A stretch of DNA of 47,742 bases from a virus. The stretch is taken from positions 1-47,742 of IMG/VR virus record IMGVR_UViG_3300029717_000016; one strand, given 5' to 3'. The notes below the pieces were generated by a model that was not told the origin of the DNA, did not search any database, and was given only the letters and a program-made list of their open reading frames with translations. A program made the position numbers and the translations under genes. Numbering within the stretch: the stretch's first letter is position 1; the number at the start of each line of letters is the position of its first letter. Below are positions 5,286 to 34,631 of this stretch, in pieces.

Positions 5286-5312
5286 TGGTGGAGCCGAGGG
5301 GAATCGAACCCC
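5286..5312 (-). other. attP core: 3' fragment of a tRNA gene (T-arm, acceptor 3' strand and CCA)
   Basis: Reverse complement reads ggggttcgattcccctcggctccacca. No matching 5' acceptor, D or anticodon arm upstream, so it is only a fragment. Adjacent to the integrase. Confidence 0.75.
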
Positions 5313-5341
5313 ATAAATAAATTTCAAAAACTGTTGCGGCA

Positions 5342-6442
5342 CTAGCAACTTTTATTTTTCATTTCCAATTCCGTTGCCAATTTGCGCTTTTTCATCGCTT
5401 CGGTGGTGAAGTAGTCGCAGAAGTCGCTGGAGCGTTTGGCAATATCTTTCTGGGCGAGGTGCGTGTAGATATTGTGCATGGTAGACAAGTCACTCCACCC
5501 TCCGATTTCGGCGGCGATCATTTCCGGAATTTGCAAGTGGTAGGCAAGAGATGCAAAGCTGTGGCGCAGCCCATGCAGATCAACCACGGTGATTCCAGCG
5601 GCGGCGCAGACTTTGCCTAAATTATTGTAGATGGTTTCTGCGCTTGCCTTTACCACGTTTCCGGTCTTCTGCTCCTGCGCTTTCAGCGCCTCTAGAAGCG
5701 GCGGAATGATAGGCACAGAGCGGCGGGACTTCGCCGTTTTGTTTTGTGGCTTCTGCACAAGCCCAGCCGCCCCCATGACGATTGCGCCGCGAACGTGCAT
5801 CACCTTGTTTTCCAAATCTACGTTTGCCCAGTCCATGGCGATCATTTCCGAGCGGCGCAGGGAGGAAAGGCACATCAGATACGGGATTTCAAATCGGTGG
5901 CCTTTTATAGCTTCCACAAACTTATCTATCTCGTCCGGCGTGAGGTATGCCCGTTCGTTGTGTTCCGGGGGATACAGCATCACCTCTGGGCGCGGAGCAC
6001 CGGCGGCGACGATGCAGGCGGAAAAGAACATCCACCCATTTTTGATATACTTCGGGGATTTCCCGGCCTTGTGTTCCTGCCTGATAGCGGCCTGCCATTG
6101 GTCATTGGAGACTGTGAAAATGTTCCGCTTCATCATGCCTAGCAGCATATTCCGCTTGAACTTCTCGTACCCTGCAATGGTGGATGGGGAAAGGAATCCC
6201 TCTTTTGATGCAATGTAGCTTTTGACGGCTTCTTCCAGCGTGATGTCTTTCCCGTCCTTCTTCTCGCGGACTTCCACAAGGCCGTTTTTCAAGGCGAGAT
6301 ATTCGGCCACGCATTCATCATATGTATCTTTCGTAATCGATACGCGGCGATTCTCTATCAATACACGTGTGTGCCACGCCCCAGAGGGGAGCTGCTTAAT
6401 TTTTGGGAGCCTGATTTCCGGCTCATTCTTTCTTTTTGCCAT
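5342..6442 (-). CDS. int: Tyrosine integrase (phage integrase family)
   Basis: LRRSEMIAMDW (R), HGLRHSFAS (HxxR), GWSDLSTMHNIYTH (Tyr). Start moved to M21 (ATG 6442, RBS aggggga) because the longer ORF runs through a terminator. Confidence 0.92.
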   Translation of the reverse strand: MAKRKNEPEIRLPKIKQLPSGAWHTRVLIENRRVSITKDTYDECVAEYLALKNGLVEVREKKDGKDITLEEAVKSYIASKEGFLSPSTIAGYEKFKRNMLLGMMKRNIFTVSNDQWQAAIRQEHKAGKSPKYIKNGWMFFSACIVAAGAPRPEVMLYPPEHNERAYLTPDEIDKFVEAIKGHRFEIPYLMCLSSLRRSEMIAMDWANVDLENKVMHVRGAIVMGAAGLVQKPQNKTAKSRRSVPIIPPLLEALKAQEQKTGNVVKASAETIYNNLGKVCAAAGITVVDLHGLRHSFASLAYHLQIPEMIAAEIGGWSDLSTMHNIYTHLAQKDIAKRSSDFCDYFTTEAMKKRKLATELEMKNKSC

Positions 6443-6469
6443 AAGGAATCCCCCTTTACATGCGGTTAG

Positions 6470-6500
6470 AAAAAATGGCAGACCGCCGAAACGGTCTGCC
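6470..6500 (-). terminator. Rho-independent terminator between toxin gene and integrase
   Basis: Minus strand: ggcagaccg tttcgg cggtctgcc followed by atttttt. Confidence 0.75.
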
Positions 6501-6573
6501 ACTGTTTTTGAGAACTAGGTGGGGCGACGCTCCCACATCTCCTAACAAGGGCGACGGCTGCCCGTTCCGTCTT

Positions 6574-7053
6574 CTAGTCCTTTCTGCTTTTGAGCAACGC
6601 GGCCTTGGTTTCGATAATATTTAACGGACTATGTAGAACCCCACGTTCAACCATGTTCAAGTAGGCAAGCGCTTTTACACGGATGTTTTTCTTTATATTT
6701 TTGTTTTCCAAAACATAAGGCACATTGTTGATATTGTATGGGCGTAGTACATGTTCCGGGAGGACGGGGAACATATCGCAGATAATAAAAGCCCTGTCTT
6801 TTCCGTATATCGGCGCTATGAGGTAATGCACGCAGTTTCCGGAGCCGTGCCGCCTCTCACTTTCATATATCAGCCGCTTGTATTTATCTACGTTGGTACT
6901 CATTGGAACCATCCATAGGACACCGGATTTGTCCGCCATAGCGTAGTAGTGGGGGCGGCTCTCCTGCTTATTCTTCATATAGCGGTTGTTCCCGTATTTT
7001 TCAAAGAAAGCATCACGGATTATGTATATTCCGGAGTCCTGTATCTCTGTCAT
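6574..7053 (-). CDS. Type III TA endoribonuclease-like toxin (ToxN/AbiQ/CptN-like)
   Basis: 159 aa. IYIIRDAFFEKY...ESRPHYYAMADKSGVLWMVPMST...AFIICDMFPVLPE has the layout of ToxN/AbiQ-type toxins. Preceded by repeat RNA plus terminator. Confidence 0.65.
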   Translation of the reverse strand: MTEIQDSGIYIIRDAFFEKYGNNRYMKNKQESRPHYYAMADKSGVLWMVPMSTNVDKYKRLIYESERRHGSGNCVHYLIAPIYGKDRAFIICDMFPVLPEHVLRPYNINNVPYVLENKNIKKNIRVKALAYLNMVERGVLHSPLNIIETKAALLKSRKD

Positions 7054-7065
7054 TTGTTATCCCCC

Positions 7066-7088
7066 AAAAAAGAATGCCGAACCGGCAT
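7066..7088 (-). terminator. Attenuator-type terminator between repeat RNA and toxin gene
   Basis: Minus strand: atgccg gtt cggcat tctttttt, then RBS gggggataacaaATG. Confidence 0.7.
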
Positions 7089-7099
7089 GGCGGCCAGTC

Positions 7100-7193
7100 C
7101 GGCATTTTCAGGCCGGAGTTTTGTATCCCGCTCCCGGCAAGCGGCAGTCTCACAACAAGCCGAAGTCTTATATCCCGCTCTCGGCAGGCGGCA
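7100..7193 (-). ncRNA. Candidate type III antitoxin RNA: 2 x 47-nt tandem repeats
   Basis: Units 7193-7147 and 7146-7100 share tgccgcYtgccgRgagcgggataYaaRactYcggcYtg. No ORF. Confidence 0.6.
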
Positions 7194-7250
7194 AATTAGG
7201 GCGGACGATGAACGTCGTCTATATAGCGTAGGTGGTTATCCTACGTCTAT

Positions 7251-7279
7251 ATTGTACCCCGAGAAATGGAAAATAGCAA
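7251..7279 (-). promoter_or_regulatory. Candidate promoter for repeat RNA/toxin-1
   Basis: Minus strand TTGCTA-N17-TACAAT. Confidence 0.5.
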
Positions 7280-7333
7280 TAGACAGATTGACCAAAAACG
7301 GAAAAATATTTCCGACAATCGTAAAAATTTATC

Positions 7334-7774
7334 TTACCTCTGAATCCATCCGGTTCCCGGGTGCATGATATCGAAGATGAGCCAGCCTACTAGGAAGATT
7401 ACCAGCACCGCAATGGAAATGCCCATAATCAGAATCACCCGCCGATTCTGGCGGTTGAGAATGCTGTAGTGCGTTTGCAGCTGCATGGTGTGCCGCCTGT
7501 AGTCCTCGCTCTGGCGGATGATCGTTGCCTGAAGATATTCCACATATTCCTCCATGGACTGGCCGGGGGCAGGTAGCACAGGGTGTTCCTCCGGGGTGTA
7601 CTGCACGGCGGCCTCAATGCTCTGCACAAGCCTTGCCGTCGGCTCCGTCGCACCATTCAGGGCGCGGCAGATCGTGGCCTTGGATACGCCGCAGGTTTCT
7701 GCCAACTCCTGCTGGGACATGCCCCGCTCCTTCCGCAGGGCTTCCAATTCTGATAAATGCTCGGAAATATTCAT
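7334..7774 (-). CDS. Membrane-anchored XRE-family HTH regulator
   Basis: 146 aa from ATG 7774 (GGAGGC RBS). HTH MSQQELAETCGVSKATICRALNG. C-terminal TM VILIMGISIAVLVIFLVGWLIF. Confidence 0.8.
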   Translation of the reverse strand: MNISEHLSELEALRKERGMSQQELAETCGVSKATICRALNGATEPTARLVQSIEAAVQYTPEEHPVLPAPGQSMEEYVEYLQATIIRQSEDYRRHTMQLQTHYSILNRQNRRVILIMGISIAVLVIFLVGWLIFDIMHPGTGWIQR

Positions 7775-7966
7775 AAAACCGCCTCCAAAAACGGAATGTT
7801 TCACATATGGAACGATTGTTGCGAAAATGGAACGGGAATTTCACATCTGGGGCTTTACGAAACGCCTGTGTGTGGTGTATGGTGGTATTGCAACCGGCAA
7901 GGGACACACGTCGTTACCGGCGGCAAGCCCCGTCACCTTGTGGCACGGGTGGCGGGGCGTATAGCC

Positions 7967-8389
7967 CTAACGAATACGTAATTCGCGGTGAAAGTATTGA
8001 AGGGAACTGCATGAACGGATCATGTCATAATGCTTGTTATCCGGATACTTCACGGCATTCCTGTACGCAATCAGGAATTTCCGCATTCCGTTTGTGATCA
8101 GCGCATCTTTCCCTTTCAATATATTGAATTCTTCCTGCTCGATGGTCGGTGTGCTTGAATTGATAAACCGCCATTCGGAGATGACGACGGCTTTTGAATA
8201 GTCCAGCCCAGCTTCGCCAACGGTAAAGAATGCCCACTTGTGGGGAATATGGTGGCGAAAAGGAATTGCGAATGTAACGCCGTCAACTTTAACCGCCAAA
8301 CAGACATACGGCCTTGTCTGCTTTATCAGAATCTCTTCACAGCCGTGATACCTTTCGTAGAAGACCGGGGACAGGGTGATCAGCTTCAT
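7967..8389 (-). CDS. Type III TA toxin-like protein (TenpN/AbiQ-like)
   Basis: 140 aa. FYERYHGCEEILIKQTRPYVCLAVKVDGVTFAIPFRHHIPH, GLDYSKAVVI, C-terminal SLQYFHREL. Preceded by repeat RNA plus terminator. Confidence 0.65.
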   Translation of the reverse strand: MKLITLSPVFYERYHGCEEILIKQTRPYVCLAVKVDGVTFAIPFRHHIPHKWAFFTVGEAGLDYSKAVVISEWRFINSSTPTIEQEEFNILKGKDALITNGMRKFLIAYRNAVKYPDNKHYDMIRSCSSLQYFHRELRIR

Positions 8390-8401
8390 CTATCTCTCTC
8401 C

Positions 8402-8435
8402 TAAAAAAGACGCCCCCTGTCGAAACAGAGGGCGT
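8402..8435 (-). terminator. Attenuator-type terminator between repeat RNA and toxin-2
   Basis: Minus strand: acgccctctg tttcga cagggggcgt cttttttag, then ggagagagataATG. Confidence 0.75.
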
Positions 8436-8442
8436 GAAAATC

Positions 8443-8542
8443 AATCGAGCTTTCTTTTGATTATGCTGCTCGCGCTCTACGAGCAAATCATCAATTGAGC
8501 TTTCTTTTTCCCGCAGAAGCCTCGCTCTAAGGCTTCATCATC
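8443..8542 (-). ncRNA. Candidate type III antitoxin RNA: 2 x 50-nt tandem repeats with covarying hairpin
   Basis: Units 8542-8493 and 8492-8443. Shared flanks and 7-nt loop tagagcg. Stems GAAGCCT/AGGCTTC versus TTGCTCG/CGAGCAG differ in a compensatory way. Confidence 0.7.
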
Positions 8543-8562
8543 GTGGAATTATCCACACCCTC

Positions 8563-8591
8563 ATTATAAAGCCCGAATATTCAGTTGTCAA
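8563..8591 (-). promoter_or_regulatory. Consensus sigma-70-type promoter for repeat RNA/toxin-2
   Basis: Minus strand TTGACA-N17-TATAAT. Confidence 0.7.
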
Positions 8592-8790
8592 CCACTTTTA
8601 AAAATTTTTTTGAATCAGAATTCAATTGTCATCTTCATTCAAAATCATACCACGTTCGACATATAATTTCAACGAAAAGAAAAATTTTTGTGCATTTTTC
8701 TAATTAGTCCGGTTTATTGGACACATGACGTGCTATTATACGCTACGTAATCAAACAAACGTTTATAAATACATAACGGAGGGACAAAAC

Positions 8791-8940
8791 ATGCAAGCGA
8801 AAGAAGAAATTAAGAAGCCTATCGAAGAGATGACGGAGCAGGAATTAGACAGGGAGATCGGAGAACGCATCCAGCTGCTGACAGATGAAGAAAAGGTAAA
8901 GCTTGTGCGCCTCCTTCTCGAACTGGCAGCATCCGAATGA
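8791..8940 (+). CDS. Small acidic hypothetical protein
   Basis: 49 aa from ATG 8791 (GGAGGG RBS). Longer track ORF trimmed. Confidence 0.5.
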   Translation: MQAKEEIKKPIEEMTEQELDREIGERIQLLTDEEKVKLVRLLLELAASE

Positions 8941-8959
8941 GCGTGTAACCGTTCAATGG

Positions 8960-9343
8960 TTATCTCCCCTCTGTAAGCCCTCTCAGCTGGGCAAGAATTA
9001 ACCGCTTGTGTTCTTCGGATAAACTCTTGACCAGCGCCATGATTTGACTATCCAATTCGGACAGCTCGCCGGAATCGGCGGGCTGTTCTTTTTCGTCGCG
9101 CTCTCTACGAACGTCGTATCCCATAAGCCACGTTTCGCTTACATTCAGTGCCAATCCGAGGATGGTCAACTTTTCCTGCCTCGGCTCAACCTTCCCGCTT
9201 ACGTACTGGCTGAGATCGTTTTTTGCCAACTTAACACCGTATTTCTCGCAAAAAGGTTTGGCAGCTTCAAGAATATCGACTTGTCGAAGCGACCTTTCAT
9301 TCATGATCTGCTTTAATCTTTCACTTGTGCTACTATTTTTCAT
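8960..9343 (-). CDS. cI-like XRE-family repressor
   Basis: 127 aa with N-terminal HTH. Divergent from the cro-like gene across an operator-rich region. Confidence 0.8.
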   Translation of the reverse strand: MKNSSTSERLKQIMNERSLRQVDILEAAKPFCEKYGVKLAKNDLSQYVSGKVEPRQEKLTILGLALNVSETWLMGYDVRRERDEKEQPADSGELSELDSQIMALVKSLSEEHKRLILAQLRGLTEGR

Positions 9344-9365
9344 TTGCTACACCTCCGGTAACTGA

Positions 9366-9394
9366 ATAATAGCACACATTGAACTAAAGCTCAA
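9366..9394 (-). promoter_or_regulatory. Candidate repressor promoter
   Basis: Minus strand TTGAGC-N17-TATTAT. The -35 overlaps a TTGAAC half-site. Confidence 0.5.
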
Positions 9395-9410
9395 GAGCCA
9401 AATAAAAATA

Positions 9411-9427
9411 ATTCAATTTTTTTGAAC
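9411..9427. promoter_or_regulatory. Operator-like palindrome ATTCAA-N5-TTGAAC
   Basis: 17-bp inverted repeat between the divergent promoters. Confidence 0.55.
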
Positions 9428-9434
9428 AAACTAG

Positions 9435-9463
9435 TTGACAAACGGGAAATTATGGTGTATACT
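9435..9463 (+). promoter_or_regulatory. Early rightward promoter
   Basis: TTGACA-N17-TATACT upstream of the cro-like gene. Confidence 0.7.
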
Positions 9464-9470
9464 TAAGCCA

Positions 9471-9487
9471 GTTCAAGAGAATTGAAC
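9471..9487. promoter_or_regulatory. Operator palindrome GTTCAA-N5-TTGAAC
   Basis: Perfect 17-bp inverted repeat just downstream of the -10. Confidence 0.65.
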
Positions 9488-9505
9488 CGAAAGTGAGGTG
9501 AGAAT

Positions 9506-9715
9506 ATGCCGTACAATTATTCCAAACTGCTAGGCCGCATTGTTGAAAAGGTTGGTACGCAGAGCAGGTTTGCCGAAAGAATGGAAATGTCCGAACGCAC
9601 CATTTCCTTAAAACTTAATGGAAAAGTTGGCTGGAAGCAGACTGAGATAGCAAAAGCCTGTAACGTTCTCGATATTCGGGACGTTGAGATTCCCAATTAT
9701 TTTTTTGCTTTATAA
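9506..9715 (+). CDS. Cro-like/DUF739-like HTH regulator
   Basis: 69 aa. QSRFAERMEMSERTISLKLNGK. GAGGTGAG RBS. Confidence 0.75.
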   Translation: MPYNYSKLLGRIVEKVGTQSRFAERMEMSERTISLKLNGKVGWKQTEIAKACNVLDIRDVEIPNYFFAL

Positions 9716-9732
9716 GTTCAAAGATATTGAAC
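9716..9732. promoter_or_regulatory. Third operator palindrome GTTCAA-N5-TTGAAC
   Basis: Perfect copy of the same motif immediately after the cro-like stop codon. Confidence 0.6.
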
Positions 9733-9770
9733 AATAGGCCGCACAAACAAGCCTAGAAGGGGGTGAAAAA

Positions 9771-9983
9771 ATGAAAAATTATCTATTCCCCAGAGGGTGT
9801 GATTCAGCACGTGTAATTCCCGTCATTGAAACACGGTCTGCGCGCGGGTCTGGTGCAGTGGATCAGCCGACACGGGTTGTCGTGGAATACTGGTCTTTGG
9901 CCGGGGAGAAGCTGGCAGAGCGCGATACCTATTTGCAGGGGATGGCTTCGGCTTCCTCGAAAGCAAGTTCCGATTCTACGTAA
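9771..9983 (+). CDS. Hypothetical small protein
   Basis: 70 aa with strong RBS (aagggggtgaaaaaATG). Its 3' end overlaps the convergent gene by 55 nt, so the end is uncertain. Confidence 0.45.
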   Translation: MKNYLFPRGCDSARVIPVIETRSARGSGAVDQPTRVVVEYWSLAGEKLAERDTYLQGMASASSKASSDST

Positions 9984-34137: not shown

Positions 34138-34211
34138 TGCGGCATAGCCAAAAGGTAAGGCACATGGTTTTGACCCATGTAATGGAAGTTCGATTCTTTC
34201 TGCCGCAACCA
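34138..34211 (+). tRNA. tRNA-Gln (anticodon UUG)
   Basis: Manual cloverleaf: TGCGGCA ta GCC aaaaggtaa GGC a CATGG ttTTGac CCATG taat GGAAG ttcgatt CTTTC TGCCGCA a CCA. U1-A72 and the D-arm match bacterial tRNA-Gln. Confidence 0.85.
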
Positions 34212-34555: not shown

Positions 34556-34631
34556 GGGTTGTTAGCTCAGTTGGTAGAGCAGCGGACTGTTAATCCGCAG
34601 GTCACAGGATCGAAGCCTGTACAGCCCTCCA
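34556..34631 (+). tRNA. tRNA-Asn (anticodon GUU)
   Basis: GGGTTGT ta GCTC agttggta GAGC a GCGGA ctGTTaa TCCGC aggtc ACAGG atcgaag CCTGT ACAGCCC t CCA. Confidence 0.85.

Follow-up and report, generated by a model that had tools for sequence, protein, structure and literature searches.

The locus described here raises the question whether a toxin-antitoxin system of type III within the cptIN family can belong to a temperate phage and, if so, what it does there. The family was defined by Blower et al. (2012, PMC3401426), and in that survey all 33 cptIN loci were chromosomal and none was found in phages; a survey of 2025 reported no type III systems in phages besides one toxIN prophage and its own tenpN matches (PMC12283969). 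The locus occupies 7279-6574 on the minus strand of the IMG/VR virus record IMGVR_UViG_3300029717_000016, a stretch of 47,742 nucleotides (nt) which is called the window hereafter, and consists, in the order of transcription, of a promoter, a leader with two hairpins, two 47-nt units, a terminator, a ribosome-binding site (RBS) and an open reading frame (ORF). The window is a temperate siphophage, with genes for an endolysin, a tyrosine integrase (5342-6502), cI-like and Cro-like proteins, terminase, portal, major head and tape-measure proteins, and the locus is very probably a cptIN type III module of its lysogeny region, in identity as well as in mechanism. The assignment is drawn from repeats capable of forming pseudoknots, from their linkage to the toxin gene and from the profile and fold of the toxin CptN. 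A first-pass annotation of the same DNA had placed the promoter, leader, repeats, RBS and ORF at these coordinates on the minus strand and beside the integrase of a temperate phage; a reading of the sequence agrees with all of these positions, and the integrase ORF is 70 nt away.

The ORF at 6574-7053 on the minus strand, which starts with ATG at 7053 and encodes 159 amino acids (aa), is by profile and predicted structure CptN and not ToxN. It scored 109.8 bits against NCBIfam NF047359, the curated equivalog model of CptIN toxins, whose cut-off is 90, and in a phmmer search its only significant relative of solved structure was PDB 4RMO, the CptN of Eubacterium rectale (CptN_Er; E=1.5e-23, residues 7-144). 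The AlphaFold2 model of the ORF has a mean predicted local distance difference test score (pLDDT) of 88.5, and its top PDB match in Foldseek was again 4RMO_A (TM 0.82/0.84, E=1.4e-11), followed by MazF/CcdB and by AbiQ (4GLK). A Pfam scan, PF13958 included, returned no ToxN_toxin and only the weak unrelated matches DUF6745 and TBPIP at E up to 1; no PADLOC model matched the ORF, and the TenpIN toxin model NF047358 matched the ORF at 7967-8389, not this one. The protein is assigned to a PHROG of unknown function, and the clade of CptN_Er contains 1,528 clusters at E below 1e-10. The first-pass annotation had spoken of a ToxN/CptN-like toxin and had proposed searches with the ToxN_toxin and CptN models: the CptN part of this stood, whereas a ToxN or AbiQ identity is rejected, Pfam ToxN_toxin being silent and NF047359 and 4RMO pointing to CptN. 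The motifs which it had quoted, RPHYY, WMVPMST and CDMFPV, are present in the protein. In the structure of CptN_Er (Rao et al. 2015, PMC4627078) there are a Ser-Ser/Thr-Arg triad, Asp81 and Ser85, which specify the scissile adenine, and Tyr104; Tyr106 of the window protein aligns with the catalytic-site Tyr104, and Ser52-Thr53 align with Ser51-Ser52.

The antitoxin would be encoded by the two 47-nt tandem units upstream of the toxin gene, unit 1 at 7147-7193 and unit 2 at 7100-7146 on the minus strand. A repeat finder gave a 38-nt core (7156-7193 and 7109-7146) of 84% identity at a spacing of 47, and 32 of the 47 bases (68%) are shared over the full units. The best 38-nt match, 32 as observed, is not approached by 1000 dinucleotide shuffles of the 300-nt region (mean 20, maximum 25), so the near-identity over about 38 nt that had been noted at first sight is real; likewise, a 33-nt pattern of the unit core has exactly 2 matches in the window where 0 are expected. 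The repeats of the window escaped Tandem Repeats Finder, being too few and too diverged, and an Rfam search, which had been suggested for 7100-7193, found no family over 7054-7250 and only sub-threshold chance matches, ctRNA_pGA1 and PtaRNA1. The unit length of 47 nt and the copy number of 2 fit the two repeats of about 45 nt that the first-pass annotation gave for the cptIN family and lie within the published ranges of the family, 40-48 nt and 1.9-3.4 copies (PMC3401426).

Each unit can fold as an H-type pseudoknot composed of stem 1 (S1) CCGC/GCGG, a 2-nt loop L1, stem 2 (S2) GCCGR/YCGGC and an 11-nt A-rich loop GAUAUAAGACU. In unit 1, S1 pairs 7191-7188 with 7178-7175 and S2 pairs 7185-7181 with 7163-7159; in unit 2 the corresponding pairs are 7144-7141 with 7131-7128 and 7138-7134 with 7116-7112. 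S2 reads GCCGA/UCGGC in unit 1 versus GCCGG/CCGGC in unit 2, a compensatory change within the window itself. Among 34 distinct units from about 20 related loci, the pseudoknot pairing holds in 99.3% of cells, and two pairs of S2 covary: pair 10-34 is CG in 29 units and UA in 5, and pair 13-31 is GC in 25 and AU in 8, with one mismatch. The observed covariation score was reached by 0 of 500 shuffles, and slid registers are only 23-50% paired. The crystallised CptI of E. rectale, whose sequence was taken from a primer in PMC4627078 and re-read in an E. rectale-type locus, is composed of CCAC/GUGG, UG, ACCGA/UCGG and UAUAUAAAUGG; the order and lengths of the elements are essentially the same as in the window unit. 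A protein antitoxin encoded in the repeat region is not supported, no ORF there being conserved in frame, length or presence.

The relatives used for these comparisons were gathered in two independent ways, through protein homologues and through a degenerate DNA pattern of the unit applied to genome, viral and metagenome collections. The protein route yielded eight homologues at 62-99% identity with their contigs. Altogether about 22 distinct repeat-bearing loci were collected, 18 of the 22 with a cptN homologue (41-100% identity) directly downstream, and the order of promoter, leader, repeats and terminator is shared by the cptN-linked relatives down to 41% protein identity; the type III architecture of promoter, repeats, terminator and toxin, recognised from the single window, is thus kept over that range. 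Some 40 single-copy matches of the pattern were taken for chance and left out; they lie within coding sequence of GC-rich soil contigs. In IMG/VR, 22 viral contigs carry the same gene at 97-100% identity, and 23 of its viral contigs are near-identical. Neither megablast of 5300-9800 nor tblastn of CptN matched any of 50,697 GenBank phage records, and in genome contigs a protein-pattern scan gave no relative, while a DNA-pattern scan gave two contigs of metagenome-assembled genomes (MAGs). Relatives are also found in prophage regions beside integrases, recombinases, holins and amidases, one of them in an Oscillospiraceae MAG. In the latter locus (L031) a cptIN cassette of about 0.9 kb, from promoter to terminator, lies between direct repeats of about 95 nt (228-318 and 1137-1226) that contain palindromes, which suggests from the sequence that cptIN was inserted or duplicated there as a unit. 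The copy number of the units differs among close relatives, L069 having one versus two in L111, and L112 has three units of 45 nt.

The elements around the repeats are arranged in the same way in the relatives. The sigma-70-type promoter TTGCTA-17-TACAAT at 7251-7279 (minus strand) matches the consensus at 9 of 12 positions and is weak taken alone, but it gains support because the promoters of the relatives share its position: in every relative the promoter stands 6 nt from the first hairpin, most being near the consensus TTGACN-17-TATAAT, and 11 related loci have such near-consensus promoters at the 6-nt distance of the window. The upstream helix-turn-helix (HTH) gene ends in a terminator of its own (7314-7299), and therefore the cptIN locus forms a transcription unit by itself. 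The structured leader proposed at first indeed contains two hairpins by folding, HP1 (CGTAGG/CCTACG, 7227-7245) at or near the 5' end of the transcript and HP2 (GACGA/TCGTC, 7204-7219) with an adjoining AGATA-like motif, both on the minus strand. HP1 is present in 12 of the 12 lineages examined with differing stems (GCGGA/TCCGC, GCAGA/TCTGC, GCAGG/CCTGC and GCGGGGA/TCCCCGC), and a second stem-loop is present in the leaders of all relatives, its stem varying as GACGA/TCGTC, GACAA/TTGTC or ACAGA/TCTGT. These folds were taken sequence by sequence, an alignment of the leaders by MAFFT and RNAalifold having given no usable consensus with their unequal lengths.

Between the repeats and the toxin gene there is an intrinsic terminator, the putative attenuator, at 7066-7106 on the minus strand, consisting of a 14-bp hairpin (7106-7073) and T6. 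The small hairpin 7088-7074, which had originally been given as the terminator, does exist in a terminator scan, but it is contained in the 14-bp hairpin, and the relatives favour the latter: the long hairpin recurs in 12 lineages at -20 to -25 kcal/mol with inner stem sequences that differ by lineage. The functional terminator is therefore probably the longer hairpin, into whose stem the 3' tail of unit 2 continues. The RBS GGGGGA (7060-7065, minus strand), as read from the sequence, follows 6 nt 5' of the ATG.

Several points weigh against this assignment or narrow it. The position of the triad arginine is Asn54 in the window protein and R, K, Q or N across the clade, and the residues aligned with the adenine-specifying Asp81 and Ser85 of CptN_Er are Tyr and Arg; judged from the alignment, these changes are the main caveat on the predicted activity of CptN, and with Tyr and Arg at these positions a cleavage specificity different from that of CptN_Er is suggested. 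As for the RNA, stem 1 is invariant across the units, so that covariation is neutral on it and complementarity is its sole support. In addition, some of the invariant columns of the alignment were set by the search pattern used for retrieval; at the two covarying pairs this pattern would have admitted mismatches, yet none occur apart from the single unit mentioned above. Furthermore, the 3' tails of the units are systematically different, unit 1 of the window clade ending in UUGUUGU(G/A)AGAC and unit 2 in YUGAAAA before the terminator stem, and the unit junctions of the window are without the UGA^AAG of the type locus, its clade having no conserved junction of this kind. By register with CptI_Er, cleavage would tentatively be placed about 7 nt after S2, after GUUG(U/A).

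The mechanism proposed for the module is drawn by analogy with the characterised ToxIN and CptIN systems. The promoter would drive an RNA beginning with two hairpins, followed by the two 47-nt units, each capable of forming a pseudoknot. The strong terminator would limit read-through and stop most transcripts, leaving antitoxin RNA in large excess over toxin mRNA. CptN, an endoribonuclease of the ToxN/Kid fold, would cut the precursor into unit-length pseudoknots and would be kept inactive in a closed ring of protein and RNA, whose stoichiometry in the E. rectale system is 2:2. A drop in transcription of the locus, or degradation of the RNA, would release the toxin, which is the more stable partner, and it would cleave cellular or phage RNA; infection by another phage and loss of the prophage are possible triggers. 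The role in the lysogen may be defence against superinfection by abortive infection, or retention of the prophage.

It is the second of these roles that constitutes the strongest alternative, in which the module is the same and was selected for prophage retention through post-segregational killing and not for phage defence; it is tenable, though on the whole somewhat doubtful. The characterised examples of cptIN have given plasmid stabilisation and no phage resistance in Escherichia coli: CptIN_Er kept plasmids stable and caused no abortive phage infection, the tests with phages in E. coli being negative (PMC4627078; PMC3401426), and the present locus directly adjoins the integrase. However, those coliphage tests of cptIN were made in a heterologous host, members of the toxIN and tenpIN families of type III do abort infection (PMC3401426), and a second type III system, tenpIN, stands 0.9 kb away between integrase and repressor, a classic position for superinfection immunity. 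Moreover, defence and retention are not mutually exclusive. That a temperate phage of gut Clostridia carries cptIN and tenpIN together in its immunity region points to competition between phages, or to prophage retention, and the locus offers a natural setting in which the role of cptIN can be tested.

The tenpIN locus (8591-7967, minus strand) is composed of a promoter matching the consensus (8591-8563), then a 5' hairpin and a pair of units, each of about 50 nt (8541-8493 and 8492-8443), a terminator at 8435-8410 between the TenpI units and the toxin gene, and the TenpN ORF (7967-8389; NF047358, 124 bits). The orphan Rfam RNA 6A (RF02925) was detected at 8490-8439 with 60.7 bits, which is exactly one TenpI unit, and TenpN homologues of 51-55% identity (L164 and L167) likewise have these tandem units and the terminator in front of them. 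Rfam 6A thus appears, from these sequences, to be the antitoxin repeat of TenpI. A short GC-rich hairpin, GGUGCGGA...UCCGC-like and starting 6 nt after the -10 box, is common to the cptIN (7245-7227) and tenpIN (8556-8541) loci, with L164 as a further case; it may act as a stabiliser of the 5' end. Between both toxin-antitoxin loci there is a gene on the minus strand (7334-7804) whose 156-aa product carries an XRE-type HTH at its N-terminus and a hydrophobic segment at its C-terminus. Two tRNA genes (34138-34208 and 34556-34628) are situated among the structural genes of the phage, with the portal gene on one side and the major head gene on the other.

The extent of the locus given by the first-pass annotation held at its 5' side but missed two elements 3' of the ORF, all on the minus strand: a skipping-rope RNA (Rfam RF02924) at 6511-6581, with 58.8 bits against a gathering score of 36.7, and a closing intrinsic terminator at 6474-6503, 5' of the integrase gene, where a scan found 13 pairs followed by a T-run. 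The skipping-rope RNA overlaps the stop codon of cptN, so that its outer stem begins inside the coding sequence. In viral contigs, a pattern scan found 27 further skipping-rope loci, 13 of which have a PBECR3 gene on their strand that stops 40-55 nt upstream; the promoter of the skipping-rope RNA, TTGACA-17-TATAAT, there overlaps the end of the nuclease gene. Reciprocally, 27 of 28 PBECR3 loci selected by protein have a skipping-rope RNA just downstream, and the contig of the 28th ends 9 nt past the gene. In these genomic comparisons the skipping-rope RNA is an obligate downstream partner of phage PBECR3 nuclease genes (27 of the 27 evaluable loci). The genes upstream of the pairs are not conserved, and therefore there is no obvious protein antitoxin for PBECR3; PBECR3 and skipping-rope are a candidate toxin/RNA-antitoxin module, judged from gene order. 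A literature search found no paper linking the two, and no PBECR3 gene is present within the window. In another locus (L147, 5600-6305) a skipping-rope RNA comes right after a mazE-mazF-like pair, called by eye from the sequence, and is followed by an integrase.

The simplest reading of the skipping-rope RNA beside cptN is that cptIN took the place of an upstream PBECR3 gene and that the RNA of the window is probably a relic, as far as comparison of the loci can tell. A terminator homologous to that at 6503-6474 follows skipping-rope in L027, L028, L031 and L032. In L032 (positions 1-600 of MAG contig CAZUZK010000284.1) a CptI-like unit is directly followed by a 120-aa PBECR3 gene with no terminator between, after which come skipping-rope and the terminator known from the window; either a swapped cassette or a chimeric assembly could account for this, the evidence being a single 1-kb contig of low coverage.

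Two other readings give the RNA a present function. The locus might be a hybrid of two RNA-controlled toxin modules, in which the skipping-rope RNA is the antitoxin or regulator of PBECR3 and acts here on CptN or as an orphan antitoxin; this is unlikely. In its orphan-antitoxin variant the lysogen would be immunised against competitors carrying PBECR3, and, if the hybrid were true, there would be a function for a structured RNA that has been an orphan since 2017, as well as a new class of toxin/RNA-antitoxin with the RNA encoded downstream of the toxin. Distinctly unlikely is the other proposal, that the skipping-rope RNA is a working third component of the cptIN locus itself, for example a second RNA binding or regulating CptN. 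The RNA is intact in all copies of the window phage (58.8-63.2 bits), its outer stem starts within cptN, it follows cptN in L027 too, and elsewhere it is tied to genes of RNase toxins, namely PBECR3 in every evaluable locus and MazF in one. Nevertheless, most cptN genes, that of the type locus among them, are followed by a plain terminator only, without skipping-rope, and the RNA is visibly decayed after cptN in L031 and L028. Moreover, no promoter of its own was found inside the end of cptN in the window, unlike in the PBECR3 loci, and the same flanks around a PBECR3 gene in L032 suggest cassette replacement.

The replacement of the triad arginine by Asn54 invites the further alternative that the toxin is catalytically weakened or dead and the locus either a relic in decay or a decoy that offers antitoxin only, which is quite improbable. 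The triad is S-T-N here versus S-S-R in CptN_Er, and repeat arrays without intact cptN do exist (L063 and L070), but the ORF is intact in the 22 independent viral contigs mentioned above and 97-100% identical in them, it exceeds the equivalog cut-off, its predicted fold is confident, and relatives with Q or K at the triad position keep full ORFs and covarying repeats. Finally, that the repeats are a mere leader or attenuator, or DNA bound by protein such as arm sites of the integrase, and not an antitoxin, is very improbable indeed and, as regards attachment (att) or integrase-binding DNA, rejected, since, although they are near the integrase and the terminator includes the tail of unit 2, they accompany cptN also where a tyrosine integrase is absent (L025 and L027), their substitutions are compensatory at the RNA level, and the crystallised CptI pseudoknot has a matching layout and loop sequence.

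The preferred reading, a cptIN module in a temperate phage, can now be set beside the systems already described. The closest is CptIN of E. rectale, whose toxin belongs to the same family by curated hidden Markov model, sequence and predicted fold. It likewise has two upstream repeats of about 45 nt, a terminator, an RBS and the toxin gene, and its H-type pseudoknot is built alike, the long A-rich loop including AUAUAA; Tyr104 and the first two residues of the triad are shared at about 30% protein identity. On the other hand, the 45-nt repeats of E. rectale are identical to each other, while the 47-nt units of the window are 68% identical, and the E. rectale locus has no leader, its first repeat beginning a few bases past the -10 box, whereas the window has a 57-nt leader with two hairpins. 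E. rectale has the triad arginine and the adenine-specifying residues where the window has asparagine and differing residues, and UGA^AAG stands at every junction there and at none in the window. In addition, the window locus is phage-borne with a skipping-rope RNA at its 3' side, unlike the E. rectale locus. The subclade, in which the leader has hairpins, the units are not identical and the triad residue varies, is useful for learning what catalysis and RNA recognition by CptN require.

The more distant systems share the general logic. ToxIN of Pectobacterium atrosepticum and Bacillus thuringiensis and AbiQ/antiQ of Lactococcus have the same succession of promoter, repeats, terminator and endoribonuclease with pseudoknot antitoxins, and AbiQ has the related fold that appears in the Foldseek results for CptN; the window ORF differs from ToxN in lacking any Pfam-family match. 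ToxI has 36-nt units in 5.5 copies and forms a 3:3 triangular complex (PMC3401426), and abortion of phages has been demonstrated for ToxIN and AbiQ but not for cptIN. The neighbouring TenpIN is also of type III, with the same orientation, the same phage region, a 5' hairpin immediately past the promoter, a pair of repeats of about 50 nt and a terminator, but its toxin is of another family (NF047358) and its RNA is unrelated, being the hairpin and AAAAGAAAGCUC of Rfam 6A. The pairs of PBECR3 and skipping-rope resemble the window in having the same skipping-rope RNA and downstream terminator after the toxin gene, but they have a nuclease of the BECR fold and an RNA promoter overlapping the gene end, both of which are lacking in the cptN locus of the window. 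From these comparisons two orphan Rfam RNAs acquire functions that can be tested, 6A as the presumed TenpI antitoxin and skipping-rope as the presumed obligate partner of PBECR3 nucleases. Among these systems the locus is not a new type but a phage-borne addition to the known cptIN family, with the features of a subclade.

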